Of a stretch of 64,000 nt of DNA, positions 4,521 through 42,044 are shown piece by piece. The position numbers were made by a program, and so were the translations under genes. The notes below the pieces were generated by a model. That model had not been told where the DNA came from, searched no databases, and saw nothing but the letters and a program-made list of their open reading frames with translations. Position 1 is the stretch's first letter, and every line of letters starts with the position of its first letter. Source of the stretch: Alphaproteobacteria bacterium (GTDB lineage Bacteria; Pseudomonadota; Alphaproteobacteria; UBA9219); NCBI GenBank assembly GCA_041908065.1, contig JAYRGC010000070.1:33180-97179 (forward strand). The letters run 5' to 3'.

Positions 4521-5564
4521 GTGATGTTCTCGCGTTTAATGGGTAGATCGTCATTCAGTTCCGCGTGTCTGGCCGCAGTCGCGTTTTCGGTAGCTGCCTT
4601 GGCAACTACGCCGTCAGCGTTCGCGGCGAACGACACGGCTTCCAGCATCTTGTCGCAAATAAACCCCTCCGGCGGAACCGCTCCATCCGATCTGTTCAAC
4701 CGCAAGGCGACGCCTCCCGACATAGCCTCGATTCCGGTTCTCAACAACATGACGAAAGTGGGGGCGAAGCTGCATTATATCGGCGAGCGTTCCGGCATAC
4801 ACGGATGGTTTATCATCAAGGACGGGCAGATACAGGTCGTTTACCTGTCGCCAGACAAGCGCAGCGCGATAATGGGCGCGATGTTCACGGATAACGGCGA
4901 AAACGTCACCGGCCCCCAAGTGGAATCCCTATCTACCGCCGACAAGTCGGTCGAAGCCTTGGTCGCCGAAAGCGCGCGCCAAGAAGGCGCTGTGATGATG
5001 GCGGGGCTTGCCCCGGGCGGATCGGCGAACGTGCAGGGCGCGAAAGCTCCGGCGGCTAGCACGGGGAAGAATGACGCGCCAACCACGTTGGCCTTCCCTC
5101 TGCCGCCCGGGGAAAGATTGTTGAACGACATGCAAGCGGCGGCGGGCGTGGTGCTGGGAAAATCCGACGCGCCGTTGTTGTTCATGATGGTCGATCCCAA
5201 CTGCCCCCATTGCAAATCGACGTGGCGGGAACTTAGGGAAAGCGTGACCTCCGGCAAGCTCCAGATCAAGCTGGTTCCCATCGGATATTTGCGCCCCGAC
5301 AGTCCGAAAATCTCCGCCCAGCTTTTGCGCGCCGCCGATCCTCTGTCGGCTTGGGATAAATACGCCGAAGGCGACGCTTCGGAATTGGCGGGCGAACCGG
5401 ATCCAACGTTCTTGCAAGCCATTCGCAACAACCAGCTGATGTCCGAGAAATGGCATATCTCGGGAACGCCCTATCTGGTGTACCGCGCCAAAGGCGGATC
5501 CATCAAGATAGTGCAAGGCAAGCCAGATCGCATGCCAGCGGTTTTGTCAGATTTGCTCAGGTGA
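4521..5564 (+). CDS. Periplasmic thiol:disulfide interchange protein, DsbC/DsbG-like (N-terminal dimerisation domain plus thioredoxin fold with CPHC)
   Basis: Signal peptide ...ATTPSAFA. CPHC active site. Downstream cis-Pro region GTPYLVY. Confidence 0.65.
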   Translation: MMFSRLMGRSSFSSACLAAVAFSVAALATTPSAFAANDTASSILSQINPSGGTAPSDLFNRKATPPDIASIPVLNNMTKVGAKLHYIGERSGIHGWFIIKDGQIQVVYLSPDKRSAIMGAMFTDNGENVTGPQVESLSTADKSVEALVAESARQEGAVMMAGLAPGGSANVQGAKAPAASTGKNDAPTTLAFPLPPGERLLNDMQAAAGVVLGKSDAPLLFMMVDPNCPHCKSTWRELRESVTSGKLQIKLVPIGYLRPDSPKISAQLLRAADPLSAWDKYAEGDASELAGEPDPTFLQAIRNNQLMSEKWHISGTPYLVYRAKGGSIKIVQGKPDRMPAVLSDLLR

Positions 5565-5570
5565 CGTACA

Positions 5571-5864
5571 ATGGGGGGATGGCTGCAAAAGGCGAGCGAT
5601 AAAACCAGATCCAACATCGGAAAAGTCTCGGCTTCTTCTCTTCCCGCCCTGCGCAACTGGGACAGGTTAGTAAAAACCTTCGAGGGCGAGGGAAAGTCGG
5701 GGGAATTGCCCAACGCTTCGCTGGTTTACGGCGTGGGCAGCGCGATTTTGATCGCGGTCGCGGCGTTTTTCATCATAGGTGGCAGCTATGCCAGCGGCCT
5801 GCTGGTTTTGATACCCGCCGCCGGATTATTGGGCTTCGCCCTTTATTTCCTGAAATACCGCTGA
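5571..5864 (+). CDS. Small membrane protein, hypothetical
   Basis: Two predicted TM helices in the C-terminal half. No recognisable family. Confidence 0.35.
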   Translation: MGGWLQKASDKTRSNIGKVSASSLPALRNWDRLVKTFEGEGKSGELPNASLVYGVGSAILIAVAAFFIIGGSYASGLLVLIPAAGLLGFALYFLKYR

Positions 5865-17469: not shown

Positions 17470-17565
17470 GTTACGCTGCGGCGAAGCAATCCAGTGCCGT
17501 TGCGCCTGTGGCTCTGGATTGATTCGCGTCGCAAGAGCGACGCTCGCAATGACGTCGCTTGCTGC
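17470..17565. repeat. MITE-like element partial copy C (hairpin plus cgctcgcaatgacg module, no TIRs)
   Basis: Sequence ggcgaagcaatccag...ctggattgattcgcg followed by gacgctcgcaatgacgtcgcttgctgc. Confidence 0.7.
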
Positions 17566-17751: not shown

Positions 17752-18480
17752 CTACAAACCGCAACCCATGCAACGCAGGCGGAACGGGATTGCTATGGAG
17801 TTGGTATTGTTATTGCGATTGCACCTTGTCATCGCGGTGGCGACCTGTACCGGAAACCGAACGGGCACACCATTTATTCCTATGGAGCTGGGCAACGCAG
17901 GATCCGGCCCATCGAATAAACCATAACCGGATGGAGAATTATCATCGGGATTAGCCGTAAGCCTAGTAGCCAACTCCACGCACGCGCCACGGGGAAGGCC
18001 GTCCAACATGATGCAGAAACTTTGTTTTCGCGCGGAGAAACTTTGTTTTCGCGCGGGATCTCGCATGTCAACCGGGTTAGCCGGGCAATTTCTACCCCCC
18101 CCCGGCCTATTATCATCAATCTGAAAATTACCCCCCCATGGATTTTGAAGCGTATAGGGTGGACCGGACGCCCTGTTGGAAACGAGTTCCAAGGGAATGG
18201 TGTGAGTTATCACAAGGGTATTGGTTAAATTAACTGCATTTCCATTGGCGTTATTTCCATTTAAATTGATGTCCCCTAGACTTCCATAATGTTTCCGTAT
18301 CTCATGCACCACCTGCTCGACCTGCGCCACGGCGCGTTCGACGCGGGCTTTTTCCATCTCCATATTGGTGATGCTCCAGATTCCGGCGATTATGAAAGAC
18401 GCGACCGCCAGCACGACCGCCATCTCGATCATGGTGTAGCCGGAGCGGCGGCTATCGCATCCTAAACGATATGCTGACAT
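17752..18480 (-). CDS. Type IVb minor pilin-like protein (prepilin-type N-terminus)
   Basis: Leader MSAYRLGCDSRRSG followed by YTMIEMAVVLAVASFIIAGIW, a class III signal. Last gene of the pil operon. Confidence 0.7.
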   Translation of the reverse strand: MSAYRLGCDSRRSGYTMIEMAVVLAVASFIIAGIWSITNMEMEKARVERAVAQVEQVVHEIRKHYGSLGDINLNGNNANGNAVNLTNTLVITHTIPLELVSNRASGPPYTLQNPWGGNFQIDDNRPGGGRNCPANPVDMRDPARKQSFSARKQSFCIMLDGLPRGACVELATRLTANPDDNSPSGYGLFDGPDPALPSSIGINGVPVRFPVQVATAMTRCNRNNNTNSIAIPFRLRCMGCGL

Positions 18481-19057
18481 TGTTGTTGTTCCCTGCGGCG
18501 TTACACCATGCGGATGCCGTGGTGGCACTTAGTGGCAGCGGGACCGCGCCGCCCGGATTGGCTATGTTGTTAAGATCGATTGTGACATTTCCTCCGGGGG
18601 CGGTCACCGTGAAAATTCCCGCCTCCTCCGACAGCACCGGAAGATATATCAAAAGATTAGCGCATTTCTGCTTGTCCAAGCCGTTGAAGTTGAAGCGGAC
18701 AAATGTTCTGACTTGGGGTTCGGTTCCAATCCTTATGCCGTCGACGGAAAAAGCCCCGCCCATCAAATGGGTGTAATTGCCGTTACTTACCCTCATCTCG
18801 ACCGGTATCATTCCTTGGGTAAAAAGCGCGTTGGTTATATTGTTTTGGGTAGCCGGGGGCTGATACGTTCTGTTCCGCATGTCCTGCACCATTTCCCACA
18901 TCTGCTGGTACACGCTGTAGGTCTGGTAATTTCGCCATGCCGCAGCGGCGGCCACCCATCCGGCGCTGATGACCAAAGTCGATATGCCCAAGGCTATCGC
19001 CGCTTCGGTTAGCGTGAACCCGCGTCTTCCGCTGCGTCTTTTGCCTATAACCATCAT
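18452..19057 (-). CDS. pilS: Type IVb major prepilin (R64 PilS-like)
   Basis: Leader MMVIGKRRSGRRG|FTLTEAAIALGISTLVISAGW. About 200 aa with long basic leader, typical of type IVb pilins. Confidence 0.8.
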   Translation of the reverse strand: MMVIGKRRSGRRGFTLTEAAIALGISTLVISAGWVAAAAAWRNYQTYSVYQQMWEMVQDMRNRTYQPPATQNNITNALFTQGMIPVEMRVSNGNYTHLMGGAFSVDGIRIGTEPQVRTFVRFNFNGLDKQKCANLLIYLPVLSEEAGIFTVTAPGGNVTIDLNNIANPGGAVPLPLSATTASAWCNAAGNNNNVSISFRMR

Positions 19058-19060
19058 GCG

Positions 19061-20170
19061 TCACATGCCCATTCCGCCGCCCATGCCACCGCCGCGAGAC
19101 ACTTCGGTAACGACGTCGAAAACCGAAAGCATCGTCCACGCGATGGTAGCGCCCACGACCATCAAACCGACGTTGCGAGCTACGACGGCCTGATCCTTAA
19201 GCTCGTCTATCTGGTCGCGAATCCATTCGTTGGCCACCTGTTCGATCACGCCGCCGACGTCGGCGCGTTCGGAGAGAATTTCCAAATCCACCGCCACGCC
19301 CGGATCGGGAAACCCGTAATCGCCCACCCGCAAGGCCTCGCCGAGATTGCGTCCGCGCAAAACCTCCTGCCGCGCCGAGTATATGCGCTCGCGCAGCCAC
19401 GGGGTAGCCTGTTCCTCTAAAATCTCAAGGGAACGCTTGAGAGGAACCTGCGCCCCCAGCAACGCCGAAAGCCCCAGCAGAAAGCTGCTGCCCTGCAGGA
19501 CGCGATACCACGACCACGGCGGAAAGCGATCCAGCTTGACCCTCAGCCTGCCGCGCCAAAGCGGCAGCGTCACGGTTATTAGAAACACTATTCCGATTAG
19601 CACGGCCACCACCACCAAGCCCCATTCGGCTAGAAAATCCGACACGGCGGCGACGTTGCCCATCTTGGCCATGACCTGCGGAGGGGCGGTTTTCTTCATG
19701 TTCTGGATCAGGTTGACGCCGAACATGTACAAGACGAAGCCGACCAGCACCACCATGAAGCCCGGGTAGGAAACCGCATAGGACACGGCGGCGCGCATTT
19801 CCCGCGTGCGTTCGCCCATAGCCTGTATCGAGGCGAAAGCCTTGGCCATGGTTCCGGATTCTTCTCCGGCGCGGATCATGTACAGCTCGGCCGGAGGGAC
19901 CCAGCCCTCCATCGATTCCGCCAAGCCTTTTCCGGCGCGATCCTTCAAAAACCACTCGCGGATCGCCAACGCGGCTATGCGGCGGGGATAACGTCCCATT
20001 TCCGAAGCGTTCTGATATAGGCGGTCGAGCGCGCTCGACAACGCTTCGTTCATCCGCAACATGCCTTCCAGCTTGCGGTATATCCTGTACCGGATCTTGC
20101 GGTTGTGCCTGAATTGGAGCTGGTTGAACGACCGCTCCAGATCGTCAAGGTTGAAACTTTCCAAACTCAT
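19061..20170 (-). CDS. pilR: Type IVb pilus inner-membrane platform protein (GspF/PilC family; R64 PilR-like)
   Basis: Polytopic membrane protein with GspF-like cytoplasmic domains. ATGA overlap with the upstream ATPase. Confidence 0.75.
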   Translation of the reverse strand: MSLESFNLDDLERSFNQLQFRHNRKIRYRIYRKLEGMLRMNEALSSALDRLYQNASEMGRYPRRIAALAIREWFLKDRAGKGLAESMEGWVPPAELYMIRAGEESGTMAKAFASIQAMGERTREMRAAVSYAVSYPGFMVVLVGFVLYMFGVNLIQNMKKTAPPQVMAKMGNVAAVSDFLAEWGLVVVAVLIGIVFLITVTLPLWRGRLRVKLDRFPPWSWYRVLQGSSFLLGLSALLGAQVPLKRSLEILEEQATPWLRERIYSARQEVLRGRNLGEALRVGDYGFPDPGVAVDLEILSERADVGGVIEQVANEWIRDQIDELKDQAVVARNVGLMVVGATIAWTMLSVFDVVTEVSRGGGMGGGMGM

Positions 20171-22245
20171 GCCATCGCCCCTAACCGCTGCTCGACTTCC
20201 ATGACTTCTTTAATGCGCGCCAACGGCCCCACTTCGAACTCGGCGTCTTGCGGAGACACTTCCCCGCGCCGTATCTTCTCCAGCGCGTGCCACCCCATGG
20301 TAACGCCGTTCATCTCGTGTGGCGATAGCCAATAATTGCTGGCGTCCTCAAAATGGTTTTCCTGCAGCATTTCCATTAACTTTTGGTCGGTCTCTATCAC
20401 TTCGGCGCACACCGTGCGTCCGGAACGGCCTTTGTAGCAATGCTGGCAACCCTCGGTATTGGCCACATAAACGTTCCGCATATCCGGTTCAGACAACCGG
20501 TCGTAAAGCGACGACTTGCCGCCACCCGCCTTGCTGCGCGAGGCGTCCATGATAGCCAATCCGGCGCGGGTACGACGAGCCAATTCCTTGTAAGTCGGCC
20601 CCATGTCCGATACAGCCGTCGACAGCGATATGCGACAATTAGGGCAAACCCCGCGCAGCAGCCTTTGACAGATCATGCCGCGCAGAAGATGGTGGTCGTA
20701 AACCAGATAAGGCTCGATGCCTATGTCGCGCAAACGCTGAGGAATGGCCAAAGCCGAATAAACGTGGGTGGTCGTGTAAACCTGTCGTCCCGTCAGGGCC
20801 AAGCGAAAGGCGAATTTGGCGGTTTGAATGTCGCGCACCTCGCCCAGCATGACGATGTCGGGATCGAGGCGCAGGGCGCAGCGCATGATTTCCAAAAATG
20901 ATTTTTCGCGCTGCTCGTCCTTGACCGAGGCCGAAACGCCCACTTGCCTCGCGCCGACCACGCCGCCTTCTGGAGGATCCTCGACCATAAGACAGTTCAG
21001 CTGCATGTTGGTTTCGGCCATGCGCCGGTTCAAAGTGACGCGCAAGGTCGTGGTCTTGCCTTGGTTGACGGGACCAGCGAACACGCGCATGCCGCCGGGC
21101 AGGGCGCGCAGGCTTTGGATGACGCGAAGCTGCTCTTGCGAAAAGCCCAGCGAATCCACGTCGGTCATTATGAAGTTTTCGCCGAACAGATGCGATGAAT
21201 CGTATTGAAGCCGCATGTCCAGATAACGACCGCCGTCCGCCAATGGAACCCATTGGCAGCGAACGCTTATGACCCCGTTGGGAAGAGACAGGGAATCCCG
21301 CCCCTTGCTGGCGGCGGAAAGCATCGCCGCTTGAGGTTCCTGCCAGTTGGCCGTGGCCCCGGACTGCCCCACCGAATGGGAGTAGATAGAGGAAAGCATT
21401 TCTTCGCCTTCCTTTTGCGTCCACGTCTCCCACAGACGCATCGCTCCGTCGATGCGGAACTCTATTCTGGTGCGGCCCTCGCTGGCCTCGATGTGAATAT
21501 CGTTGGCTCCCACCTGAACCGCGCGTTCAAGGGTTTCGGTTATCCTTCTTCTGACCGAGTTTTCATCCAGCCGCGCCGTAACCTGCTTGCGGTTAGCGTA
21601 CATGTACGCTTGCCGGATAATGTTAGGCGTGACGTAACGAGGGGGATCGAGACGATGCCCCTGCCTCTGCGCGGCTTGGGCGACCGAAGTCACCAGCGGC
21701 GAGTTGCGGTGCGACGCGCTGACCAGCCACATGCCGTTGTCGAACAGGGCGCAAAGATTGCGGGATTCCTCGGGTATCTTCAACGCCCCGCCTTCGGCTG
21801 TCAGCAGTTCGCCGGAAAATGACATCCCGCCCGCTAAGGCTAGGCTTCTTTCGTCCTCCACCTTTAATTCGTTAGTGCCGGAAATCTTGGCTTGGGGTGA
21901 ATTGCTGCTCCCCTCGCCGCCGCTTTTACCCGAACCGGAGGAAGCCTCGGGCTTCTCTGCGCCTTCGTTCGAGTCGGCTGAGCGTTCTTGCCCGCTTTTA
22001 TCCGCCGCCGCAGCCACTGTGGTCGCCGCCACAAGGCTGGTCGGTTTGGCATGTTGCTTTTGATAGGCGTCTCGCACCTGCTTGGCATTGGCAGCGGAAG
22101 TCTCCGCCGCTTGTTTGCGCTCTTCCTCGGTTTTAGGTTTGCGAGGCGGCGGCAGCGGGGCTTCGGGAGGAATAGATCCCCCTCCTCGCAAAGCCGCGTT
22201 CAGCTTTTCGCCTATGTCGGATATTATGCTCAAGGCGGCACCCAA
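20167..22245 (-). CDS. pilQ: Type IVb pilus assembly ATPase (GspE/PilB family; R64 PilQ-like) with long low-complexity N-terminal extension
   Basis: Walker A GPVNQGKTTTL, Walker B MLGEVRD, His box TTHV. Tetracysteine CPNC...CQHC. The first ~150 aa are Ala/Ser/Glu/Lys-rich. Confidence 0.85.
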   Translation of the reverse strand: MGAALSIISDIGEKLNAALRGGGSIPPEAPLPPPRKPKTEEERKQAAETSAANAKQVRDAYQKQHAKPTSLVAATTVAAAADKSGQERSADSNEGAEKPEASSGSGKSGGEGSSNSPQAKISGTNELKVEDERSLALAGGMSFSGELLTAEGGALKIPEESRNLCALFDNGMWLVSASHRNSPLVTSVAQAAQRQGHRLDPPRYVTPNIIRQAYMYANRKQVTARLDENSVRRRITETLERAVQVGANDIHIEASEGRTRIEFRIDGAMRLWETWTQKEGEEMLSSIYSHSVGQSGATANWQEPQAAMLSAASKGRDSLSLPNGVISVRCQWVPLADGGRYLDMRLQYDSSHLFGENFIMTDVDSLGFSQEQLRVIQSLRALPGGMRVFAGPVNQGKTTTLRVTLNRRMAETNMQLNCLMVEDPPEGGVVGARQVGVSASVKDEQREKSFLEIMRCALRLDPDIVMLGEVRDIQTAKFAFRLALTGRQVYTTTHVYSALAIPQRLRDIGIEPYLVYDHHLLRGMICQRLLRGVCPNCRISLSTAVSDMGPTYKELARRTRAGLAIMDASRSKAGGGKSSLYDRLSEPDMRNVYVANTEGCQHCYKGRSGRTVCAEVIETDQKLMEMLQENHFEDASNYWLSPHEMNGVTMGWHALEKIRRGEVSPQDAEFEVGPLARIKEVMEVEQRLGAMA

Positions 22246-22365
22246 GAAATCAATACAACCACGACCAGCATATCATCCCCTAGCGGGATAAGCGCAATGC
22301 CGTCCTGCATCTTCCGATTAAAAACACACTAATTGGTTAACATTCTCGATGGCCACAAAAAAATT

Positions 22366-22623
22366 GGCTCTTTCTGAAAACCGGTGGGCAAGAAATCTCT
22401 GGCTCTTACGCAAAACTGGTGGGAAAAAGAGCCGTGCGAGGTTACAGCCAAAGGCTGTCTGCGAGCCGCCACCCTTTGGTTTGGACAGCGTTAACGCTGT
22501 CGGGCGGCGAAGCAATCCAGGCCTTATGGAGCAACGGCACTGGATTGCTTCGCGTCGCAAGGGCGACGCTCGCAATGACGTCGCTTGCTATGCAAAATTA
22601 TCCACCCGTTTTGGGCAAGAGCC
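22366..22623. repeat. MITE-like element copy D, located inside the pil operon (pilP-pilQ intergenic)
   Basis: Duplicated left TIR (ggctctttctgaaaaccggtgggc / ggctcttacgcaaaactggtggg). Hairpin and cgctcgcaatgacg modules. Right TIR tccacccgttttgggcaagagcc. Confidence 0.85.
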
Positions 22624-22661
22624 AGAAATCCAGACAGAGTCCGTGTCTATTCCTTTGGTGA

Positions 22662-23477
22662 TTATTTGGAGGAACCGAACACAGTGTTGACGTCCTTGAC
22701 GCGAATCACTCTTTCGTCACGGGAGGACGAAGAACAGCTGCTCTTGGATTTTTTGCCCTTCTTGGACTTTTTACCATCGGAAGATTCGGAACAGTTGGAT
22801 AAAGAACTGTCGCCGCCCTTCGATTTGGCCAAAGTTATTCCATAGCTGTTCACGGAAACCACCGTGCTGCCATCGGAAATTTTGTCTCCTTCGCGAACGC
22901 TGACATGCTTTTCGCTGTCGCCAACGCGAATGATGGCGCGGTAATTGCCTCGGGCTCCCACGACGCGCTCGACCACCACGTCTTCCTGCGGCTTTTCAAT
23001 CGGCGGAGGCGGAGGCTGCATCGCCGCCGGAGGCATCATACCCATCTGCGGCGGGGCAAGCGCGCTGGCCGGTATGGCGGGTATGGTTTTTTCTTCTCGT
23101 TCGCGGCGGATCTGATCCAACTCGCTGATCCGCTTTTCCAGATCGATAAGAAGATCCATCTTGGCGACAGCCTCGCGAGCGCGGTTCATGTCCTCGACAT
23201 TAACTTTGTCGGAAGAAGTTCCAAGCTGCTTAACCAGCCCGCTAACCGATTCAGGAACCTTGGGATCGCCTTCTTTTTTATCCAAAGCGGACGAAGATAT
23301 GCCAATTCCCGAAGCGGCATCGACCGTTGGTTGAACCTCGGGCGACTGCGGCATCACCGGAAAATCCTGTGGAACCGCGGCGGCGTCTTGCGCTGATACC
23401 GGAAGCGAGCCAAAAGCAGCGGCTCCCAAAGCCGCGAAAGCTACGGCGGCGGCGAAATTTCTAGCGACGGTTTTCAT
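22662..23477 (-). CDS. pilP: Type IVb pilus periplasmic protein (R64 PilP-like), signal peptide plus coiled-coil plus Pro-rich
   Basis: Signal peptide ...GSLPVSAQ. Positioned between the pilO and pilQ homologues. Confidence 0.55.
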   Translation of the reverse strand: MKTVARNFAAAVAFAALGAAAFGSLPVSAQDAAAVPQDFPVMPQSPEVQPTVDAASGIGISSSALDKKEGDPKVPESVSGLVKQLGTSSDKVNVEDMNRAREAVAKMDLLIDLEKRISELDQIRREREEKTIPAIPASALAPPQMGMMPPAAMQPPPPPIEKPQEDVVVERVVGARGNYRAIIRVGDSEKHVSVREGDKISDGSTVVSVNSYGITLAKSKGGDSSLSNCSESSDGKKSKKGKKSKSSCSSSSRDERVIRVKDVNTVFGSSK

Positions 23478-24717
23478 AAATTACCCCCTCGATGTTCCAT
23501 CCACCCCCAGGATTTAATGTCAGAGAGTTTAACACGACCCCGGGCAAATCGGCAAAGAAAGTGGACAATGTCCATGGTAAAACAGGGGCGTTCATGGTGA
23601 ACGACATCCTTATCCACGGCACTGGCGGCGGATTCCACGGACCGTTATATCCGGGCGGTGGCGGCGGCGGCGGATCGTCAGGAACGCGATTCAACGTGGC
23701 CGGCCAGTTTTCGAGCAAGTACTTGCGGGTAACGTCGACCGGATCGGCAAGTTCCTCGTGGCCGCGATCGGAAATTGTCGGAAGCACGAAACTTTGGGTG
23801 GCATCTGTTCCCAGATCAGATATGACGAAGTCGGGCGGCGGCGAAGAAAATCCGCCAGCGCGATCCCATTTTGTCGTGGCCGACGCGCCTACGCATTTAA
23901 CCTCGGACAACCGCCATCCAGCTACCGCCAACGGTATTTTATTTAAAATCTTATTGCAGGCGGAAACGAACTCCAGCGGGGCGGGGCGTTTCTCCCATGT
24001 GCGCTCGGGGACGGGATATGGCGGGGGTTGACCGGCTATGCCTTGTCCGGCCTGACGCGCCAATTCTTGGGCGCGTTGCAAAGCCTCCATCGCCTGAAGT
24101 CTTTCCGCTTCTTCGCGTGCCTTTTTCTCCTGAATATACCAGCCGATAGACAAGGCCAGCAAAAGCCCTAATCCGCCCACAAGCAGAACCAGCTTCATCT
24201 CCTTGGACAAAGCCACTTGCCGCAGCCTAACGTCAGCGCGGTCGTTGAGCAACAGGCTTACCGGAAGGGTGTCAGCCCCGGGCACTCCCCACGCCTCGGG
24301 CGCGTAGACGCGTTGTAGTCCGCCCAAAGCCATTTCCTGCAAGAGGCGATCGCGAGCTTCGGTTTCATCCTGGAAAAACTGGTCGCCGTCGGGAACAATG
24401 AGATCGTCGCGAACCACCACCACCGCCACGCCCTCGCGGAGACGGAAAGCCCCCGCCCACGAGCCTGGCTGCTGGTTGGCGATGCAGGCCGCCAAAGCGG
24501 GCATTCCGCTTTTGTGTTCGCGTTGCGAGTGGCTGAGGCCGAATTGTGGGACCCGCCCGCTGCGATCGCCGCTGCGAACGGCATAGTAGTAGGCCTGCTG
24601 CCCGGGCTGTCTGGCCGCGTCCTTAGCCGCTTGCGCGACGCGCCCGCTGGGACTGTTTTCCCAGTACAAGCCGGAGGCGTACTGCCTTCGTCCTATGGTG
24701 ACGATGCCTGAAGCCAT
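23461..24717 (-). CDS. pilO: Type IVb pilus biogenesis protein (R64 PilO-like)
   Basis: 418 aa with a central TM segment LVLLVGGLGLLLALSIGWYI. Synteny downstream of the secretin. Confidence 0.55.
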   Translation of the reverse strand: MASGIVTIGRRQYASGLYWENSPSGRVAQAAKDAARQPGQQAYYYAVRSGDRSGRVPQFGLSHSQREHKSGMPALAACIANQQPGSWAGAFRLREGVAVVVVRDDLIVPDGDQFFQDETEARDRLLQEMALGGLQRVYAPEAWGVPGADTLPVSLLLNDRADVRLRQVALSKEMKLVLLVGGLGLLLALSIGWYIQEKKAREEAERLQAMEALQRAQELARQAGQGIAGQPPPYPVPERTWEKRPAPLEFVSACNKILNKIPLAVAGWRLSEVKCVGASATTKWDRAGGFSSPPPDFVISDLGTDATQSFVLPTISDRGHEELADPVDVTRKYLLENWPATLNRVPDDPPPPPPPGYNGPWNPPPVPWIRMSFTMNAPVLPWTLSTFFADLPGVVLNSLTLNPGGGWNIEGVIYENRR

Positions 24718-26306
24718 CAGTCACGCTCCGCGCGAGGAACTTCCAAAACCTGCGGCGTTATCGCCATAAACATCATGGAGTGGGTGAACGAGTCGTCATA
24801 TCCACCACCCAACATGAAGTTGAAAGGACTGCCGACCCCCCGCGTATCCTGCGTATCCATCCTGTCGTCGTAACCGCCGATGAAAAGCGTCGAACCGCTT
24901 TTCAGCAACGCTTGCTGCACGAACACGCGGCTCGCTGTCTCAGGCAATTCCAACTCCGTCCCTTGAATGATAACCGGCTTGAAACCTAGCAGATCCGTCA
25001 GACTGAGCGAGTATTGAAGGACTATGCGTCCGTCATCCAATAAACGCGGCGTCAACTGGAGGGAAAAGCCGTCACGCACCACGCCAGTAGTGACAGAAAC
25101 GCTGGAGGAAGAACTTATCGAACCAGTAGTATTCGTCAACGACGACACATAGGCGGTATCTTTGCCAATACGACGGGAAACCGGACGATTGTTCAACGTC
25201 GTCATCGGGAATTGCGCCATACGACTGGTGTTGCCCAAGGTAGACAGGGCTGAGAACACGCCGTTGCGATTCTCGCTGGGGTTCAAGATGGCGATCGAAA
25301 GTTTTCCCGCCCCCGCGGTTGCCGCCGCCGCTGTGGTAGGGCTAGCGTACCTCGCGCCGAAATCCGACAACTTAGCCAAGGCGGTTTCAAACGCGAAGTC
25401 GAAGGTGACTTCATTACCCAAATCGACGCGGTAGATTTCCACGTTTATGGCTATCTGCTTGGACAACCGCTTGTTTTCTTCCTCGATGAACTGCGCCACC
25501 ACCCGCATCAATTCGGGCGTGGTGGTAACGGTGATGGTTCCGCTGGAGGGGGCCACCACGGCGTTGCCGACGCCACCCAACATGGAGGTGATGGTCTGAC
25601 CCAATTCGTCCCAAACCTTGATTTCAACGTTCATTTCCGCCGATTGCTGCAACGCGCTGGTGCTGCCGCCGCCGGAAGAACCGCCGCCGCCGGAGCCGCT
25701 CATCGATCCGCCGGAAGAACCAGAGCTTTCGTCTTCCTTCATACCGTCTTTGACACTTTGGGTGCCGGGCAGAGCCTCAATCGAGAACACGCGGGTTTCG
25801 TATCTGATGATAGATACCGACGTGCCGTCGTAACGCCAACTGACGCCGAAATACCCCGACACCAGATCCAACAATCCCGACAAAGATCCCTCATAAGCAA
25901 CCGGCATCCCCGCCTTGGGCGCGTCAGCGACCGCAGCCGTGTCGGCACCACCCGCCACCCTTATGGGCAATCCGGTTTGGCCGCCTATCGCCGAAGCTAT
26001 TTCCTTAAGCGACATTGGATCGCCAGATACCAAGGCGACGCCGCGAGAAGTTTCGTATTTAGCAGGCAAGGGCAAACCGCGACGGAGACGCATCGAAGCG
26101 TTGCCAGCCCACACGCGATCAGTCACCACCAGCGGATTGTACGCCTTAGGAGGAGCCGGAACGCGGGATTCCTCGACCCCGCTCGCCACCCGCTGGGCGT
26201 TTTGATTTATCTTGTTATTCGTCTTGTCGACCGTACATCCCGCCAGCGCGACCGCCGAAGAGAGAACAAGAACCATCCGCTTGGAAACCATGGTCATCCC
26301 CATCAT
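24717..26306 (-). CDS. pilN: Type IVb pilus outer-membrane secretin lipoprotein (R64 PilN family)
   Basis: Lipobox LAGC. C-terminal secretin motif LFIGGYDD...FMAITPQVL. Confidence 0.8.
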   Translation of the reverse strand: MMGMTMVSKRMVLVLSSAVALAGCTVDKTNNKINQNAQRVASGVEESRVPAPPKAYNPLVVTDRVWAGNASMRLRRGLPLPAKYETSRGVALVSGDPMSLKEIASAIGGQTGLPIRVAGGADTAAVADAPKAGMPVAYEGSLSGLLDLVSGYFGVSWRYDGTSVSIIRYETRVFSIEALPGTQSVKDGMKEDESSGSSGGSMSGSGGGGSSGGGSTSALQQSAEMNVEIKVWDELGQTITSMLGGVGNAVVAPSSGTITVTTTPELMRVVAQFIEEENKRLSKQIAINVEIYRVDLGNEVTFDFAFETALAKLSDFGARYASPTTAAAATAGAGKLSIAILNPSENRNGVFSALSTLGNTSRMAQFPMTTLNNRPVSRRIGKDTAYVSSLTNTTGSISSSSSVSVTTGVVRDGFSLQLTPRLLDDGRIVLQYSLSLTDLLGFKPVIIQGTELELPETASRVFVQQALLKSGSTLFIGGYDDRMDTQDTRGVGSPFNFMLGGGYDDSFTHSMMFMAITPQVLEVPRAERD

Positions 26307-27331
26307 TAGTCGCTGTAATTGTTGCCACGAACCTCAACCACCAGAACCGTCTGTCCTGCCGTCGGGCTGTTATGCAAACGGGCAATCGGTTGGGGCTGAG
26401 CGTCTTGGAATCCTAATAATAAACCGCGCACAGCCTCCTCAAAAGTTCCGGTAGACGCCACCGAAGCCTGTATCGGATAGTCGTACTCGGCTTGCCAGCT
26501 TACTTCCACGCCGGCCTTCCTAGCCCACCCATCCAACACCGAACGAAGCGTCTCCCCGCGATTGGCTGTCCATGTGTCCAACACCGTCGGAGCCGCGCCC
26601 ACGTGTCGCGTTCCCGCAAAACCGCCGTTGGCAGCCACTGTGGGTATGGACACCGGAGCCTGATCAAAAGAGTCGTCGCCACCCAAAGTTCCCAACGAAG
26701 ACGGCCTGTCCAAAACCGTGTTCGACGGCGATTGCAGCAGCGAAGCCGGACGATCGGCGATCACGGAAGATCCTGACGCGCCCGATCTGGAAATTATGAC
26801 CAACCCTTCGCGTTCGCGCATAGACAGGCCAGCGGGCTGGATCATGTCTTTTATGGTTTGACGCCAAGACTTGCCGCCGCGCCAAGAAACCATGACATCG
26901 GATCCCACATCAGGATCCACGGAGAAGCCGTGATCGGGCGGCAACACTTGTCGCATCGCCACAGCAAGCGGCACGCTGTCGGCGAAACCGCGCACAGCTC
27001 CGTCGCCATCGCTCGAACGGCCGGAAGAAGAAACCAAAGGCTCGGGATCGCCGCCTACCACTACCGGAGCGATGGCGCGAGGAGAGGGGGAAACCACATA
27101 GTTCTGAACCTGAACAGGGGATCTCGGCGCGGGCGACGGCGAATAAGCATTGCCCACCGCCACCTGAGGAGCGGCCTGACGCGACGGAGCTACCGATTCG
27201 GCAGGGGCAACCCACTGAAATCCGGCGATCGCGTTGTTTGGAAAAACCGCCGCTATCGCCGAGGCGGCTATCGACGCCAACAAAAGGCGGCGCAAAGCCG
27301 ACGGCGAGGAAGTCAAAGTGCGATCTTGCAT
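26306..27331 (-). CDS. Pilus-associated periplasmic protein with TcpQ/PilL-like C-terminal domain
   Basis: Signal peptide plus Ser/Pro-rich linker. C-terminus W..GETLRSVLDGWARKAGVEVSWQAEYDYPI resembles the TcpQ C-terminal domain. ATG at 27331. Confidence 0.5.
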   Translation of the reverse strand: MQDRTLTSSPSALRRLLLASIAASAIAAVFPNNAIAGFQWVAPAESVAPSRQAAPQVAVGNAYSPSPAPRSPVQVQNYVVSPSPRAIAPVVVGGDPEPLVSSSGRSSDGDGAVRGFADSVPLAVAMRQVLPPDHGFSVDPDVGSDVMVSWRGGKSWRQTIKDMIQPAGLSMREREGLVIISRSGASGSSVIADRPASLLQSPSNTVLDRPSSLGTLGGDDSFDQAPVSIPTVAANGGFAGTRHVGAAPTVLDTWTANRGETLRSVLDGWARKAGVEVSWQAEYDYPIQASVASTGTFEEAVRGLLLGFQDAQPQPIARLHNSPTAGQTVLVVEVRGNNYSD

Positions 27332-27613: not shown

Positions 27614-28066
27614 CTATACGCCAGCAGAGCGCAGCAGCTCGCGCATAGAGACCAGCTCGCCCAACACTCCATCGAGATCGCGCCGCGCCGCCGAGGAAAG
27701 TTTGGACTGGGTTTCGCCGTCGCTATATACGGCATCGGATTCGACGGCCAAGGCCTTCTTCCGACCATCCTTCAGAATTTTCTGCACCCCGCGTATGGTG
27801 AACCCGCGCCCGTAAAGCATGTCCTTGATGTCGGCCAGAAGAGCCACGTCCTCGGGACGGTAATACCTGCGCCCGCCGCTGCGCTTCATGGGGCGAATTT
27901 GCGAAAACTTGCCCTCCCAGAAACGCAAGACGTGCTGGGGAACCGCCAAATCGCTGGCGACCTCGCCTATGGTGCGGAAAGCGTCAGGAGCCTTGGGCGA
28001 AAGCGGCTGTCCGGCTACGATCCAGCTTTCGTCAGCCACGCCGCCGTTTTGCTGATCGACGATCAT
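27614..28066 (-). CDS. MerR-family transcriptional regulator
   Basis: [22 protein letters not shown]. Conserved ihfA-merR synteny. Confidence 0.8.
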
Positions 28067-28425
28067 TCTTCGTCACCGTCATTCTCGTCGTAAGCCGACG
28101 AGGTGTCGCCGCCCATGGCAGCATTGACTTTGTTCTTCAGCATGTGGCTGGCGTGGAACGCCAAAACGCGGCGCGGCATTATCGGCACCTCTTCACCGGT
28201 CTTGGGGTTACGGCCTATCCTTTTCGCTTTGCCGCGCACATGGAAGCTGCCGAACCGGCTGATCTTTACAGTGTCACCCGCCATCAGCGCGCTGCTGATC
28301 TCGCCCAGCAAAGCGTCCACAATCTGCGCGGAATCGCTGCGCGACAGGCCTATTTCGCTGTTTATGGCCTCGGCCAGATCTGCCCGCGTAAGCGTAGTGT
28401 CCGTCATGTCCGCCACCTTCGCCAT
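28063..28425 (-). CDS. ihfA: Integration host factor subunit alpha
   Basis: [10 protein letters not shown] ... [12 protein letters not shown] matches the IHF/HU fold signature. Confidence 0.9.
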
Positions 28426-29634: not shown

Positions 29635-29916
29635 GGAAACCTATGAAGCTGGGCGGCGCATTGGTTGATTCGGCTACTTTAATCTTAAGAACTTAGGCTA
29701 TGATCCTCGCATACCCACAGGCAAAAACACAGCGAGGTATTTTTGTGTCAATGTACATTGATGCCGTCAACTGTAACAGGAAGCTGCAACAGGACATGGG
29801 CAGATTAAAGAGCCGCGTCAACCCTCCAAATTTTTGATTGTTGCATATTCTCAATTCAGTGTAATACTAGTCTCAAACACGACTGGTGTTTGGCCGTTTA
29901 AGATGAGGTTTTATCA

Positions 29917-30684
29917 ATGATGAGGATGCGCGGCAGCTGCCAATTTCCTTTAACATGCCTATTATTTTCAGTGCTCCTAACATGTTTTGTTGGAATTGCC
30001 CACGCCTACACACCAGATCCACCCCCTGAAACGGCTCAAGAAGTCACATTAAGGCAAGAATCTGTTCAGCTCTTTCTGGAGGGCAAATTTACTGAATTAG
30101 ATAAAAAATTAGATGACTTGCAGCAGGATTATGAAAAAGGGAAACTATCCGACATCAATATCATGCATATTTCCAGAGGTTTTTACAACACGTCTGACGA
30201 TTGGCGCGCTAACTATGACGTATGGATTTCTAAAAACCCAAAATCATATTCCGCGCATCTAATGCGTGGAATATATTTTGTGCGAAGGGCGTTGGAATCT
30301 CGTGGAGGGAAATACATTAACGAAACATCATCAGACCAAATACGATTAATGCGGGAAAACTTTAAGCTTGCCCTAGTAGACTTAAAAGCATCTTTAGCCT
30401 TAACTCAGAAACCAATAGTCACATATTACAATCTTCATCAGATATATAATCAATATGGAGATACTGATTCTAAAAATAAATTAGTGGATGCAGCAAATAA
30501 AATAGACCCAAAAAATTATGTGGTGAGGTACAGCCACTTGGGTTCATTAATGACTCGTTGGGGCGGAAGCCTTGAGAAAATGATCGCTTTCAGAAATCAA
30601 TGTAAACAAGATGGACTGCCAGACTCGCAAATAATTTACTTTGACCAACTTCTGGCCAAAGAACGCGAGTGGCTATCTCGCTGA
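29917..30684 (+). CDS. Hypothetical secreted protein (low-GC, signal peptide, helical repeat-like)
   Basis: Signal peptide ...FVGIAHA. Local sequence is AT-rich relative to the flanks. An IS remnant lies immediately downstream. Confidence 0.5.
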   Translation: MMRMRGSCQFPLTCLLFSVLLTCFVGIAHAYTPDPPPETAQEVTLRQESVQLFLEGKFTELDKKLDDLQQDYEKGKLSDINIMHISRGFYNTSDDWRANYDVWISKNPKSYSAHLMRGIYFVRRALESRGGKYINETSSDQIRLMRENFKLALVDLKASLALTQKPIVTYYNLHQIYNQYGDTDSKNKLVDAANKIDPKNYVVRYSHLGSLMTRWGGSLEKMIAFRNQCKQDGLPDSQIIYFDQLLAKEREWLSR

Positions 30685-30704
30685 TTCAGGTTTCTATCTA
30701 GTGT

Positions 30705-31586
30705 CTAATTCCGTAAATTAGCGATAGTATTTTTGAGCTGGCTGCCTTTGACCTCGCGCTTTGTCCAGACGAAAGGCTTTGCGGTGGTGTCGTAAGCCTC
30801 GCAAAAATTCTCGATGGCCCGCTTGAGGTCGTCGATGCTTTTGAAGCTTGCGCCGCGCAGGGCTTTGCGCGACAGAATGCCGAACCAGATTTCGACCATG
30901 TTGAGCCAACTGGCTGATGTCGGCGTGTAGTGAAAGAAGACATTGGGATTTCGCTCCAGCCAATCCTCGTTCTTTTTGTGCGTCGAATAATTGTCCACAA
31001 TGATGTGGATCTCCCGATCTTCAGGAACGTCCGCCACCACATCGTCAAGAAAGGCCTGAAAATCAGGACGCTTTTTTGTCTGCGTCATTTTCGTTTTGAC
31101 TTGTCCTGTCGCGGTGCTGAGCGCGGCAAAAAGGTTCAGCGTGCCGTGCCGCTTATAGGTGCTTTTAAGGCCGCGAACAATTTTCTGGCTGGATGTTTTG
31201 ACATATCCCGTCGCACGTTCCAGTGCCTGAATGGATGGTTTTTCGTCGATCGAAATGACGACCGCCCGTTCCGGCGGGTTGAGATAAAGCCCTATGATGT
31301 CCGCCGATTTGGCGGCAAATTGCGGGTCTGTGCTGACGCACCAGCTTCGCTGCCGCGCCAATTGGATGTTTTTCCGGCGCAAGAAGCGCCAGACAGCGCT
31401 GGCCGTGCCGCCCACGGTTTTGGCCAGAGCTTTTCCGTCTCAGGTTGATTGGCCCTTGGGCGGGGGCGACTCTAACGCCTTTACGATTTTCGCTTCGTAT
31501 TCTTCGCCATACTCTTTGCGTCGCCCGCTCCGTGCGGCGTCCTCCAGTCCCGCCAATCCCTGCGCCGCAAAACGACGACGCCATTT
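30705..31586 (-). pseudogene. IS630-family transposase, inactivated (in-frame TGA at 31442-31440, 5'-truncated)
   Basis: DDE_3 domain DEKPSIQALER ... DNYSTHKK. Upstream in-frame KWRRRFAAQGLAGLEDAARSGRRKEY ... PPPKGQST*. The stop is TGA where W (TGG) is expected. The N-terminal HTH is missing. Confidence 0.8.
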
Positions 31587-37221: not shown

Positions 37222-37415
37222 CGGCGTTTGCGAAGTTACAGCCAAAGGCTGTCTTTGTAGGGTTACGGCCAAAGGCCGTCATGCGACGCGAAGCAATCCA
37301 TTGCCACAGGCGCAACGGCTCTGGATTGCTTCGCGGCCTGAAGAAGGCCGCTCGCAATGACAGCGCTTATTGCTGCCATTCTCTTATAAATTACTCTCCA
37401 GTTTTGCGCATAGAG
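37222..37415. repeat. MITE-like element copy F (tandem 27-bp units, hairpin, degenerate TIR)
   Basis: Contains gcgaagttacagccaaaggctgtc x2, gcgaagcaatcca...ctggattgcttcgcgg, and cgctcgcaatgacagcg. Confidence 0.75.
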
Positions 37416-37956: not shown

Positions 37957-38439
37957 GTGGCAGGAAAACTCCCCAAAGACATATCCGCCATCGTGGACGG
38001 GGTGGCATCGCGTGTGGTCGGCAACGACTGGGCGTTGTATGCCGCCCTGTTCCGGCGGTGGCGGGAGATAATCGGCGAGGAATATGCGGACGCCACCTCC
38101 CCCGTAAAACTTTCCGCGATGCCGCGCGGAACGCTTGCGTCCGGCGAGGCCGGATGCCGTCCCCCCAAAAGGCTGCATATCGCCTTGCCGCGCGGTTTGG
38201 TAACAGACATTACGTTTGCCAAGCCGCGCATTCTGGAACGCATCGCCGATTGCATCGGGCGGGAAGTCATAGCCGATCTTGTGTTGGAACCCAGACATAC
38301 AACAAAATCCAAGGCGTTTCGCGGACGCGCCGCGCCCACAGCACCTCCGGTCGAATGGCGGGAACGGATTGACCGTGAAATAGAAAACCCCGACCTGCGC
38401 GCCGCGCTGGAAAGCCTCGGCGCGTGGATGAAGGGATAA
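37957..38439 (+). CDS. DUF721/DciA-family protein
   Basis: About 160 aa with the typical alphaproteobacterial DUF721 layout. Motifs WREIIGEEYADATSPVKL and LHIALPRGLVTDITF. Confidence 0.6.
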   Translation: MAGKLPKDISAIVDGVASRVVGNDWALYAALFRRWREIIGEEYADATSPVKLSAMPRGTLASGEAGCRPPKRLHIALPRGLVTDITFAKPRILERIADCIGREVIADLVLEPRHTTKSKAFRGRAAPTAPPVEWRERIDREIENPDLRAALESLGAWMKG

Positions 38440-39802: not shown

Positions 39803-41356
39803 TTAGTGCGAACCGTTGCCGATCCGGCCTTCCAGTCTTTCGATCGCCTCGGACTGTTCGCGCACTGTGCGGGACAGTTCGTCGTTGCGGGTCTTCAGCT
39901 CGTTGACAGCCCCCACCAGCGGCCCGATCAGGCCGATGTAGTTGACTGCCATGTAACCGTCAGCACCGCTCTTGACGAGTTCCGGATAGACCTTCTTCAA
40001 GTCCTGGGCGATGAGGCCGAGCTGCTTGTCGCTTGGCTTGTCGCCGTTCAGAACATAGGAAATCGGAACCAACTTACCCATCCGATCCAAGACGCCCTCC
40101 AGCGGCTTTACGCTGTGTTTGACGCGAAGATCCGATGTCCCGTACTGGTATAGAGTGCCCGCGTAGACACGCATGGCTACAAGCGAACCAGTTATACGCT
40201 GGCTCCCAAACACTTGCAAAGCTTCCACGCATTGGGGAGTAGTAGCTTCAGCTATCGCATCAATAATACAGGCATTACCACCAGCACCGTCCACTACAAG
40301 TGGTTTGAAATCGTCACTTCCCGGGACATTAGAGAGGACGACGTTCGCCGAGGGGTTCTTAAACCGCCCACGCAGCATATTCACCATCGTACCAGCTGGG
40401 GTAGGATTTCCCGCGGCATCATAGGTTGCACCATCGATGGCACCACCCTCTAGGCGTAGAGTATTTCCGACCATATGGAGGTTATAGGTATTGGCCGGAT
40501 CAGCAGGAACGGTGACAGCAGTAGCTGCGTCGCTTTTGAAAAACACACTGCGCTGCAATGTGAAGAAGTCAGGAGTATTAGACGTCCCCACCGTGCCAGC
40601 ATTGGTCGTGGTGGCATCGGCTACCCTAGCCAACCACGGGTTGGAGCTGATGGTCGTGATCCTGCCGACATAGGACATTGAGGCAACGCGGCCAACTGAA
40701 GCCTGACCACCAAGTCCATAATTTGCAACCGGAGCAGTCCACGCGCCGTAAGCACCGCAGGCGTTGTTAGGCGTAGCTCCACAGGTAGCGACGTTGTACA
40801 TGAAGCCGCCTTCGGCACCGATAAGGGCGGAAATGGATCCACCCTCGCTATCGGAAATCGGCTGTCCACCAGTCGTCATGACCATGTAAGAATAGCTGCC
40901 GTTCGCCTCTTTTCTGACTCCGATGGCAAATCCTTGGTCATATGCGTTGACCGTATTGGAATTTATGGTGTCCGGCAGATACGGACACAAGGCATCGATG
41001 CCAACTGGCCCGAACGTAGGGGGAATGTTGGTGTTGCCACCGCAAGGGGTGCCAGCCGCCCGTGGCGGGGGCAATTGAAGTGTTATCACTGTATTGGCAG
41101 GAACGGCAGTGCTAGCAACAAACCCCTGAGCCTGACCGTCGGTTCCCATATATATTTCCACCGCCGCCATTATCTGGCGATGCAAATCGGCCGAAGCCTG
41201 ACCTTGCAACTGCTGGCCGCCTCCGGAGACGAGTTTCCACAACCCGCCGAACAAAAGCGCGGAAATCGACAGGACGATCGCCAATTCCACCAGCGTGAAA
41301 CCGCGAGCATCTTGGCGTCCGCGGAGAATATTCGTTATAGCTTTGGAACCCATCAT
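39803..41356 (-). CDS. Pilin-like protein with C-terminal phage tail-fibre intramolecular chaperone (peptidase S74) domain
   Basis: N-terminus: leader then RG|FTLVELAIVLSISALLFGGLW, a prepilin peptidase motif. Middle: Gly/Thr/Ala/Asn-rich. C-terminus: SDLRVKHSVKPLEGVLDRMGKLVPISYVLNGDK...LGLIAQDLKKVYPELV...AVNYIGLIGPLVGAVNELK plus coiled-coil. GGGAGG RBS 7 nt before the ATG at 41356. Confidence 0.7.
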   Translation of the reverse strand: MMGSKAITNILRGRQDARGFTLVELAIVLSISALLFGGLWKLVSGGGQQLQGQASADLHRQIMAAVEIYMGTDGQAQGFVASTAVPANTVITLQLPPPRAAGTPCGGNTNIPPTFGPVGIDALCPYLPDTINSNTVNAYDQGFAIGVRKEANGSYSYMVMTTGGQPISDSEGGSISALIGAEGGFMYNVATCGATPNNACGAYGAWTAPVANYGLGGQASVGRVASMSYVGRITTISSNPWLARVADATTTNAGTVGTSNTPDFFTLQRSVFFKSDAATAVTVPADPANTYNLHMVGNTLRLEGGAIDGATYDAAGNPTPAGTMVNMLRGRFKNPSANVVLSNVPGSDDFKPLVVDGAGGNACIIDAIAEATTPQCVEALQVFGSQRITGSLVAMRVYAGTLYQYGTSDLRVKHSVKPLEGVLDRMGKLVPISYVLNGDKPSDKQLGLIAQDLKKVYPELVKSGADGYMAVNYIGLIGPLVGAVNELKTRNDELSRTVREQSEAIERLEGRIGNGSH

Positions 41357-41444
41357 GTTTAGCCTCCCTTGGTTTAAAACGACTTTTCTCCACTTTCCCG
41401 AACGCTTCAACACGTTCTCGGCGTCACGGCACCATTATAACACC

Positions 41445-42044
41445 TTATTTTAACACTACAACCGCCCCGTTCGTAATACCAGTGCCACTAGCCGTGCCAA
41501 AATTGAACGTCCTCTGGGTAGGAACCCACCCATTTCCTGATACGGCTCTCCCCACGTTAGTCCTTATTACTGTGCTTGTCGGCCCCATAGATATTATCCT
41601 GCCGTATGTGCCGGGCAGCATCGGTGGATTCATGTTGTTAAACTGCTTATCCAATTCCGCTACCGTGAGTCCCACGCCAGCTATCGGTTGATTGTTGTTG
41701 GCAACATTGAATGCCGTTATGGTTATAATTGTTCCTGCCACATTGCACTTAACTGTATTGATGGTGTTAACCAGCGAAAATGCCGTGCCATAAACCGCCC
41801 CTCCATCATTCAACATCGAATACATGGAATTGGGAAGACTCGCCGCCGCCGCCGTAACCCTATTACAAGTTCCTGCACCGGCGGGGTTACCGGTTGTGTC
41901 AGCAGCAATCACTTTGTTGTAGGCGTCAATAGAACTCGCCGTCAAATCCTGTCTCTCCGACATTTTGGCGGATTGCTGGAAATACGCATTGGTGTAAACA
42001 CCAATCGCGGCCAAAAGCAATATTACAAATGTAAATATATACAT
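41445..42044 (-). CDS. Hypothetical membrane-anchored Thr/Asn/Gly-rich protein (low-GC, co-oriented with the pilin-fibre gene)
   Basis: N-terminal TM MYIFTFVILLLAAIGVY. About 85 bp upstream of the pilin-fibre gene on the same strand. Confidence 0.5.
   Translation of the reverse strand: MYIFTFVILLLAAIGVYTNAYFQQSAKMSERQDLTASSIDAYNKVIAADTTGNPAGAGTCNRVTAAAASLPNSMYSMLNDGGAVYGTAFSLVNTINTVKCNVAGTIITITAFNVANNNQPIAGVGLTVAELDKQFNNMNPPMLPGTYGRIISMGPTSTVIRTNVGRAVSGNGWVPTQRTFNFGTASGTGITNGAVVVLK

Follow-up and report, generated by a model that had tools for sequence, protein, structure and literature searches.

The 64,000-nucleotide stretch analysed here (contig JAYRGC010000070.1 of assembly GCA_041908065.1), called the window throughout, carries on its minus strand, at 17752-27331, an eight-gene type IVb pilus operon of the kind known from the thin pilus of plasmid R64. 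The locus is best explained as a pilus that serves contact or adhesion and is passed on within a lineage of uncultured Alphaproteobacteria, and we consider it probable that this is a functional, domesticated adhesion pilus. It is a divergent member of a known family and not a new machine, fits known biology and has direct precedents. Judging from gene order in relatives, a large PilV-like pilin with its partner (39803-42044) and a pair that includes a DsbG-like gene (4521-5864) belong to the same pil system, and the interval 17752-27331 is evidently not the whole of it.

All eight open reading frames (ORFs) point in one direction, and the same genes were called independently on a Logan contig of identical sequence. 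Their order is that of R64 (L-N-O-P-Q-R-S-minor pilin). BLASTP against R64 (NC_005014) gives collinear matches for PilN (24% identity), PilQ (30%), PilR (28%), PilO (25%) and the TcpQ region of PilL (28%). An earlier reading made from the sequence alone (the sequence-only reading) had described eight co-directional genes in R64 order, and the ORFs, the profile matches and the collinearity with R64 bear this out. The profiles it had named as checks (TIGR02520 for PilN, T2SSE, T2SSF and PF10671) all matched the expected genes. Its description of overlapping stop and start codons holds for five junctions, which overlap or nearly touch: pilL/pilN (TAATG), pilN/pilO (TGATG), pilO/pilP (17 nt shared), pilQ/pilR (ATGA) and prepilin A/prepilin B (29 nt shared). 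Between pilR and prepilin A there is a 3-nt gap. The description does not hold between pilP and pilQ, which lie 416 nt apart (22246-22661). Relatives also have a spacer at this point, but one of only 24-300 nt. The spacer in the window contains a copy, found by repeat search, of a dispersed repeat resembling a miniature inverted-repeat transposable element (MITE) or a repetitive extragenic palindrome (22395-22629, core 22434-22624, with 28-nt inverted ends).

The first gene (26306-27331) encodes a PilL-like periplasmic protein with a C-terminal TcpQ domain (PF10671, 57.9 bits). The product is 341 amino acids (aa) long from the ATG at 27331, as it is in the Logan call; the ORF itself reaches a TTG at 27400. 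It has a signal peptide and, unlike R64 PilL, no lipobox cysteine. Only the TcpQ region aligns with R64 PilL (E 5e-4), and the proteins encoded ahead of PilN in relatives are 42-45% identical to it. The next gene (24717-26306) encodes the outer-membrane secretin lipoprotein PilN (524-529 aa), with Secretin_N_2 and Secretin domains and the lipobox LAGC. PilN passes the TIGR02520 cut-off of 287.65 by a narrow margin (290.2 bits); it matches R64 PilN at E 6e-34 and the BfpB structure 9U5S at E 5.5e-56. Adjoining pilN is the gene for PilO2 (23461-24717), a bitopic inner-membrane protein with a cytoplasmic actin-like N-domain. PF06864 covers its residues 14-414 (94.4 bits, cut-off 26.7), and its N-terminus matches the Burkholderia pseudomallei PilO2 structures 4BYZ/4BZ0 (E 2e-4). 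PilO2 is not exclusive to the R64 variant, because BfpC has been placed in the same family (PMC3984277). The product of the fourth gene (22662-23477) has a signal peptide, a proline-rich linker and a C-terminal beta domain. It scores 22.9 bits with TIGR03021, under the cut-off of 34.65. When a profile of the clade's PilP proteins (eight loci) was compared with R64 PilP by hhalign, the C-terminal domain matched with a probability of 83% (E 9e-6); the gene product is probably PilP.

The extension ATPase PilQ (20167-22245, exact start uncertain; T2SSE, 180.7 bits) has a Walker A motif (GPVNQGKT), a Walker B motif and a tetracysteine motif. It matches R64 PilQ at E 1e-47 and its relatives (572-691 aa) with 71-79% identity. 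Most relatives, but not R64 PilQ (517 aa), share its N-terminal extension, which is about 150-220 aa long and partly rich in Pro, Ala, Lys and Glu. The polytopic inner-membrane platform protein PilR (19061-20170) has two T2SSF repeats (70.5 bits). It matches R64 PilR at E 2e-37 and its relatives with 73-76% identity.

Two prepilin genes close the operon. Prepilin A (18452-19057) occupies the PilS position and is the candidate major pilin. It has an N_methyl motif and the leader MMVIGKRRSGRRG, followed by FTLTE (RRG↓FTLTE, the arrow marking the cleavage site), and is 28-33% identical to the pilins that follow PilR in relatives. Prepilin B (17752-18480) matches N_methyl and TIGR02532, and its leader MSAYRLGCDSRRSG is followed by YTMIE (RSG↓YTMIE). 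PF08805 (PilS_N) is found in prepilin B only (26.8 bits), and R64 PilS likewise matches prepilin B (E 1e-4) and not prepilin A. The gene for prepilin B also contains a perfect in-frame 21-nt tandem duplication at 18015-18056 (ARKQSFS/ARKQSFC), which suggests a recent slippage event. Both prepilins and the detached PilV-like pilin have a common cleavage motif, (R/S)G↓(F/Y)T(L/M)xE.

Assignment to other pilus and secretion families was considered and rejected. For Tad/Flp, the TadA model reaches only 22 bits, and the best model for the secretin is that of PilN. For the type II secretion system (T2SS), GspE scores 176 against a cut-off of 630 and GspF 66 against 424, and genes for GspC, GspL and GspM are lacking. 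With the Tad and T2SS models so far under their cut-offs, the view that the locus is R64-type and neither Tad/Cpa nor T2SS stands. A related idea is that the machine is mainly a device for type II-like secretion, with a soluble protein passing out through PilN in the way that the toxin-coregulated pilus (TCP) exports TcpF, and not mainly a bearer of an adhesin. Pili of the TCP and CFA/III types do secrete proteins, and GspE models are the best-scoring ones for the ATPase. Those scores are nevertheless far below threshold, the operon offers no candidate secreted substrate, and the system is conserved together with a large tip adhesin of its own. Together with the missing gspC, gspL and gspM, this makes such a device highly improbable.

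The setting of the operon is chromosomal. The window contains the housekeeping genes parB, parA, gidB, mnmG, dciA, hisD, hisG, asd, dapB, panC, ribD, proB, ubiE and uvrD, and the G+C content of the operon (0.576) matches that of the remaining window (0.573). No tRNA gene was found in the 64 kb. Pfam searches of about 50 further window ORFs identified no integrase, relaxase, type IV secretion system (T4SS), A24 peptidase or SLT gene. Nor does the window hold a relaxase, coupling protein, type IVB secretion system (T4BSS) core or integrase/tRNA border as expected of a conjugative element with mating-pair formation genes of type I (MPF_I), and neither a shufflon nor the recombinase Rci is present in it. 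The sequence-only reading had proposed a chromosomal locus free of any integrative and conjugative element (ICE), and these flanks and absences agree with it. It had also reported that PilU, PilT and PilM are not in the window; in accord with this, neither Pfam nor tblastn gave a match, the latter with R64 PilU, PilT, PilM, PilI, PilJ and PilK as queries on the 64 kb. The position it gave, between a MITE remnant and a merR-ihfA pair, is likewise correct: a part-copy of the dispersed repeat lies at the 3' end of the operon (17478-17563, repeat search), while MerR (27614-28066), directly upstream of pilL, and IHF-alpha (28063-28425) lie on the other side. Recent horizontal acquisition of the operon was considered and rejected in view of the matching G+C, the housekeeping flanks and the conserved chromosomal anchors in relatives.

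Hundreds of PilN homologues are 45-57% identical to that of the window, nearly all from alphaproteobacterial metagenome-assembled genomes (MAGs), and the contigs are in many cases 0.1-2 Mb long. For plasmid PilN and BfpB the identity is no more than 24-29%. PilQ and PilR are still closer to their counterparts, with 71-79% identity in relatives whose PilN is about 55% identical. A common layout was read in six of these relatives (loci L001, L004, L005, L008, L009 and L010). Its left part encodes two proteins of some 500 aa each, a third of about 282 aa and a TrbN/IagB-like transglycosylase of 153 aa. The middle part encodes a DsbG-like protein, a protein of about 95 aa, DotD, TraI/DotC, a DotB-like ATPase and IcmT. 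The right part consists of pilL-N-O-P-Q-R, four to six pilin genes, two genes of about 200 aa and a gene for a pilin of 460-540 aa that combines N_methyl with Peptidase_S74. A scan of genome contigs returned a single relative, L001, and the left border was reached through a metagenome scan; it is a DUF6600/FecR gene beside a gene for ClpB or a XerC/D-like recombinase; the DUF6600/FecR gene product is 46% identical between two loci. At the right border, in locus L013, there are housekeeping genes. The relatives' loci contain no tRNA.

In the window this layout is split: the DsbG-like pair, the pil core and the adhesin module lie apart, and the window lacks the dot block, the transglycosylase and the genes that precede them in the relatives' layout. 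The DsbG-like periplasmic disulfide isomerase (4521-5564, plus strand) just passes its profile (NF008657, 124.4 bits, cut-off 124) and is 48-49% identical to the gene that lies between the transglycosylase and DotD in relatives. It is followed, as it always is, by the gene for a 97-aa protein of unknown function (5571-5864, plus strand), recognised by synteny and 36-43% identical to the product of a 94-100-aa gene at the same position in L004 and L005. The detached pair adjoins a YhdP-like gene. Separation of the parts is also seen in other genomes. For example, in the complete 2.06-Mb MAG CP064970, pilLNOP stands beside an IS1 fragment and the S74 pilin gene lies 0.55 Mb away among housekeeping genes, and in L020 the adhesin module is likewise detached among housekeeping genes. 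In L004, L008, L009, L010 and L013 the adhesin module is contiguous with pil.

The dot genes raise the question of whether the pilus serves secretion. It might provide the contact arm for type IVB secretion or conjugation (Dot/Icm- or IncI-like) by a system located elsewhere in the genome, drawing target cells close for the transfer of DNA or effectors much as the R64 thin pilus does in liquid mating. The dotD - dotC/traI - dotB-like - icmT block lies directly upstream of pilL in the six relatives, the DsbG-like pair of that block survives in the window, and on plasmids of Thalassospira and Bosea the same pil order is combined with MPF_I genes. However, the window has no homologue of DotD, DotC, DotB or IcmT; when three PilT-like ATPases and DotD, TraI, DotB and IcmT were used as tblastn queries on the 64 kb, PilQ was the sole match. 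In the relatives, moreover, the block ends at the ClpB or XerC/D-like and DUF6600/FecR genes, and between the chromosomal borders there is no large T4SS ATPase (of VirB4/DotO size), coupling protein or relaxase. A complete T4BSS has therefore not been demonstrated anywhere in the clade, and the presence of a whole one in the relatives was rejected for the sequenced flanks. The pil-linked unit in the clade is the dotDCB-icmT sub-block, not a demonstrated complete T4BSS or ICE. We regard the contact-arm explanation as unlikely for the window. The ATPase of the dot block (L004 7204-8460, with equivalents in L005, L008, L009 and L010) scores 410 bits with the DotB model TIGR02524, 233 with TraJ and 226 with the PilT family. 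In those genomes it could power pilus retraction; nothing equivalent is present in the window.

The detached adhesin module consists of two genes on the minus strand, 12 kb outside the operon, which are conserved as a unit and end the pil cluster in relatives. The larger gene (39803-41356) encodes a PilV-like large minor pilin of 517 aa with N_methyl and PF13884 matches and a leader ending in QDARG↓FTLVE. The leader is followed by a pilin domain with conserved cysteines, a variable middle part, a Peptidase_S74 domain and a coiled-coil tail. At the start of the S74 domain there is an S-D-x-R-x-K cleavage motif, in which S408, D409 and K413 are invariant. The protein is 37% identical to the last gene product of the L004 pil cluster, and its N-domain matches the annotated PilV of a Bosea plasmid (29% identity, E 3.5e-14). 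N_methyl and S74 occur in 11 of 11 members of the adhesin family, and Shufflon_N (PF04917) in two of the 11. The C-terminus aligns with the chaperone region of a phage long tail fibre (6F45, E 1.7e-4). The family is large: a profile search returned 721 cluster representatives at E<=1e-30, with more than 100 full-length proteins among the matches listed. Its NCBI name is 'tail fiber domain-containing protein', and we found no published description of a fusion between a pilin and an intramolecular chaperone of the S74 type. The partner gene (41445-42044; 199 aa from MYIFTF...) encodes a protein with an N-terminal hydrophobic helix and no cleavable leader, and a homologue lies directly upstream of the S74 pilin gene in five relatives. 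In L020 (1-6405) the neighbours of the module include a YadA-like protein that exceeds 4000 aa and another two Peptidase_S74 proteins, each about 380 aa long, which hints at a wider use of S74-capped fibres in the lineage.

The sequence-only reading had called the system 'domesticated or decaying'. The first of these terms can be kept, the second cannot. All eight ORFs are intact, without stop codons or frameshifts, and agree in length with those of relatives. In the other 119 PilN homologues, 90 sites are conserved to at least 95%, and the window's PilN shows no change at any of them (family median 1.1%). Private changes at sites invariant in all other loci number 4 of 62 in PilL, 3 of 106 in PilO, 11 of 338 in PilQ and 8 of 183 in PilR, which is the same range as in relatives with the full layout. 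To judge from these coding sequences, the locus is not decaying.

Several observations nevertheless weigh against a functional adhesion pilus. Neither a prepilin peptidase nor a lytic transglycosylase nor a retraction ATPase is present in the 64 kb; two other A24 peptidases and two lytic transglycosylases used as tblastn queries gave no match. Transcription could be split at the repeat-bearing pilP-pilQ spacer, and promoter and terminator consensus scans over the operon gave no more hits than expected from shuffled sequence and were uninformative. PilP has a low-complexity insertion of about 33 aa, rich in Ser and Lys, near its C-terminus, which is absent from all seven aligned relatives. There are two small pilin genes where relatives have four to six. 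An AlphaFold2 model of the adhesin (11 sequences) reached a mean predicted local distance difference test score of only 50.7, with the pilin domain (residues 20-230 approximately) alone usable, and was dropped as evidence; a Foldseek search of this model against the PDB returned nothing at E<=0.001.

Some of these features would be expected if the locus were the decaying remnant of a larger T4BSS-pilus island, broken up by repeats and insertion sequence (IS) elements, from which pili are no longer made. The ancestral layout is indeed in three pieces on different strands, with the dot block and the transglycosylase missing. The reduced pilin set, the repeat copies between pilP and pilQ and at the operon's 3' end, the PilP insertion and the duplication in prepilin B point the same way, as does the CP064970 cluster, which ends after pilP beside its IS1 fragment. 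The intact reading frames of typical length, the lack of excess change at conserved sites and the intact catalytic motifs of PilQ all speak against decay, and the adhesin module is itself intact and is detached in other genomes too. We therefore hold a decaying remnant to be quite improbable and retain the functional, domesticated adhesion pilus.

For this adhesion pilus a mechanism may be proposed from homology to R64, the bundle-forming pilus (BFP) and TCP. We infer that the operon is expressed and that the pilus depends on a prepilin peptidase not linked to it. This PilD-type enzyme would cut the prepilins after the Gly of the common motif; the Phe or Tyr at position +1 and the short leaders of all three prepilins would fit a general PilD-type enzyme encoded elsewhere. 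A PilQ hexamer would power the PilR platform, where prepilin A, with prepilin B, would be polymerised to a filament. PilO2 and PilP would join this inner-membrane motor to the PilN secretin, and the PilL-like protein, through its TcpQ domain, may aid PilN in the outer membrane. The detached 517-aa pilin would prime assembly and occupy the tip. TcpB and CofB are large tip minor pilins of this type; they prime assembly and permit retraction without an ATPase, and CofB is a homotrimer. By analogy with them, the PilV-like pilin may be a trimeric tip adhesin with its chaperone cleaved off. A fibre-like receptor-binding part would be brought to trimerise by the Peptidase_S74 domain, which would afterwards remove itself by self-cleavage, as in phage tail fibres. 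As there is no retraction ATPase, retraction, if any, would be passive, as in TCP.

A more far-reaching proposal, to which we give a low probability, is that the pilus and its S74 tip pilin are the target-recognition arm of a chromosomal contact apparatus linked to dotDCB-icmT, vertically inherited in uncultured Alphaproteobacteria (some labelled 'Bdellovibrionales') and acting on prey, hosts or partners. That the pilus has been uncoupled from the dot block in the window and yet kept would imply that it has a function of its own. If the proposal is true, the pilin-S74 fusion, which occurs in hundreds of metagenomic clusters, is an undescribed class of pilus tip adhesin. We found nothing relevant in the literature on the clade, on a linkage of dot genes and pili in Alphaproteobacteria or on Micavibrio. 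What makes the locus interesting is chiefly the S74 tip pilin and the variable linkage of dot and pil genes, and less the operon as first described. The S74 pilin is a candidate new adhesin class for structural work, and the different states of the linkage (linked, split and dot-less) form a natural series in which to ask whether such pili work without type IVB secretion.

Some further features of the window should be mentioned. The genes parB, parA, gidB and mnmG at 52629-57697, together with the DciA gene at 37957-38439, suggest that the chromosomal origin of replication is not far away. No other database sequence is more than 74% identical to MnmG (68-72% for Azospirillaceae, other Rhodospirillales and MAGs), and the host is therefore a deep-branching uncultured alphaproteobacterium. 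The dispersed repeat is about 190 nt long, with inverted ends and a palindromic core, and has at least eight copies in the 64 kb (2265-2448, 17478-17563, 22434-22624, 37229-37368, 55277-55475, 55608-55756, 58619-58768 and 60982-61061). A Logan short-read assembly of the same organism ends at the copy in the pilP-pilQ spacer. A region 2.5 kb upstream of the operon (29900-31450) has a low G+C content (0.46 compared with 0.57) and encodes a DUF4034 protein (third-position G+C 0.37) and an IS630-type DDE_3 transposase (30705-31415), the sole transposase in the window. This region is probably a small foreign insertion.

Among known systems, the plasmid loci of Thalassospira xiamenensis and Bosea sp. 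RAC05, in which type IVb pilus and MPF_I genes are combined, have the same TcpQ-PilN-PilO2-PilP-PilQ-PilR-pilin order, with DotD-TraI-TraJ nearby. The Bosea plasmid also encodes a thioredoxin-fold protein, in addition to the PilV whose N-domain resembles that of the adhesin. These loci differ in lying on plasmids with replication, integrase and coupling-protein genes and in having their own prepilin peptidase and a PilT-like second ATPase, and their PilN is only 26-27% identical. BFP, TCP and CFA/III are about as close in one respect, as PilN is as similar to BfpB as to plasmid PilN (approximately 25% identity). They have the TcpQ domain in common with the window, their large minor pilin is initiator and tip (TcpB; the CofB trimer), and TCP has no retraction ATPase. 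They are set apart by other accessory sets (BfpG/U/C, TcpC/Q/S and more), their own peptidases (BfpP, TcpJ), long leaders and the lack of the R64 order.

The sequence-only reading had implied that a chromosomal R64-type operon without its own peptidase is unusual. It is less so than was implied, since there are precedents in Tfp7 and PAPI-1, and PilU, PilT and PilM are dispensable among these recognised members of the R64 variant. The pil2 locus of PAPI-1 in Pseudomonas aeruginosa lacks pilU, and the PilD of the host processes PilS2 (PMC3984277). It differs from the present locus in being carried on an ICE, for whose transfer it is needed, and in keeping pilM2 and pilT2. Tfp7, on chromosome 2 of B. 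pseudomallei, is a chromosomal, genus-conserved R64-variant operon in which TcpQ replaces PilL; pilU is lacking, and another system is presumed to supply the peptidase (PMC3984277). It is also the source of the PilO2 structure 4BYZ that the N-domain of the window's PilO matches. Tfp7, however, keeps PilM and PilV in the operon and PilT2 nearby, has a rearranged gene order and shows neither an S74 adhesin nor a linkage to dot genes.

Another close system is the thin pilus of R64 (IncI1) itself, with which the window shares the order L-N-O-P-Q-R-S-minor pilin, homologous PilN, PilO2, PilP domain, PilQ and PilR (24-30% identity), a lipoprotein secretin, the lack of a retraction ATPase and a PilV-type adhesin related through the N-terminal constant region (Shufflon_N). 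R64 is plasmid-borne and its pilus serves conjugation; it has PilI/J/K, PilM, the transglycosylase PilT, the peptidase PilU and a shufflon whose recombinase Rci makes the C-terminus of PilV variable. All of these are missing from the window. PilQ in the window has the additional N-terminal part, and the pilins have short leaders with Phe or Tyr at +1. Most work on R64-type pili has treated them as accessories to plasmids and ICEs of gamma- and betaproteobacteria, whereas here such a pilus is a stable chromosomal feature of a little-known alphaproteobacterial lineage. Its solution for the tip adhesin is also different: in place of a shufflon, the adhesin ends in Peptidase_S74, predicted to be a self-cleaving chaperone of the tail-fibre type.

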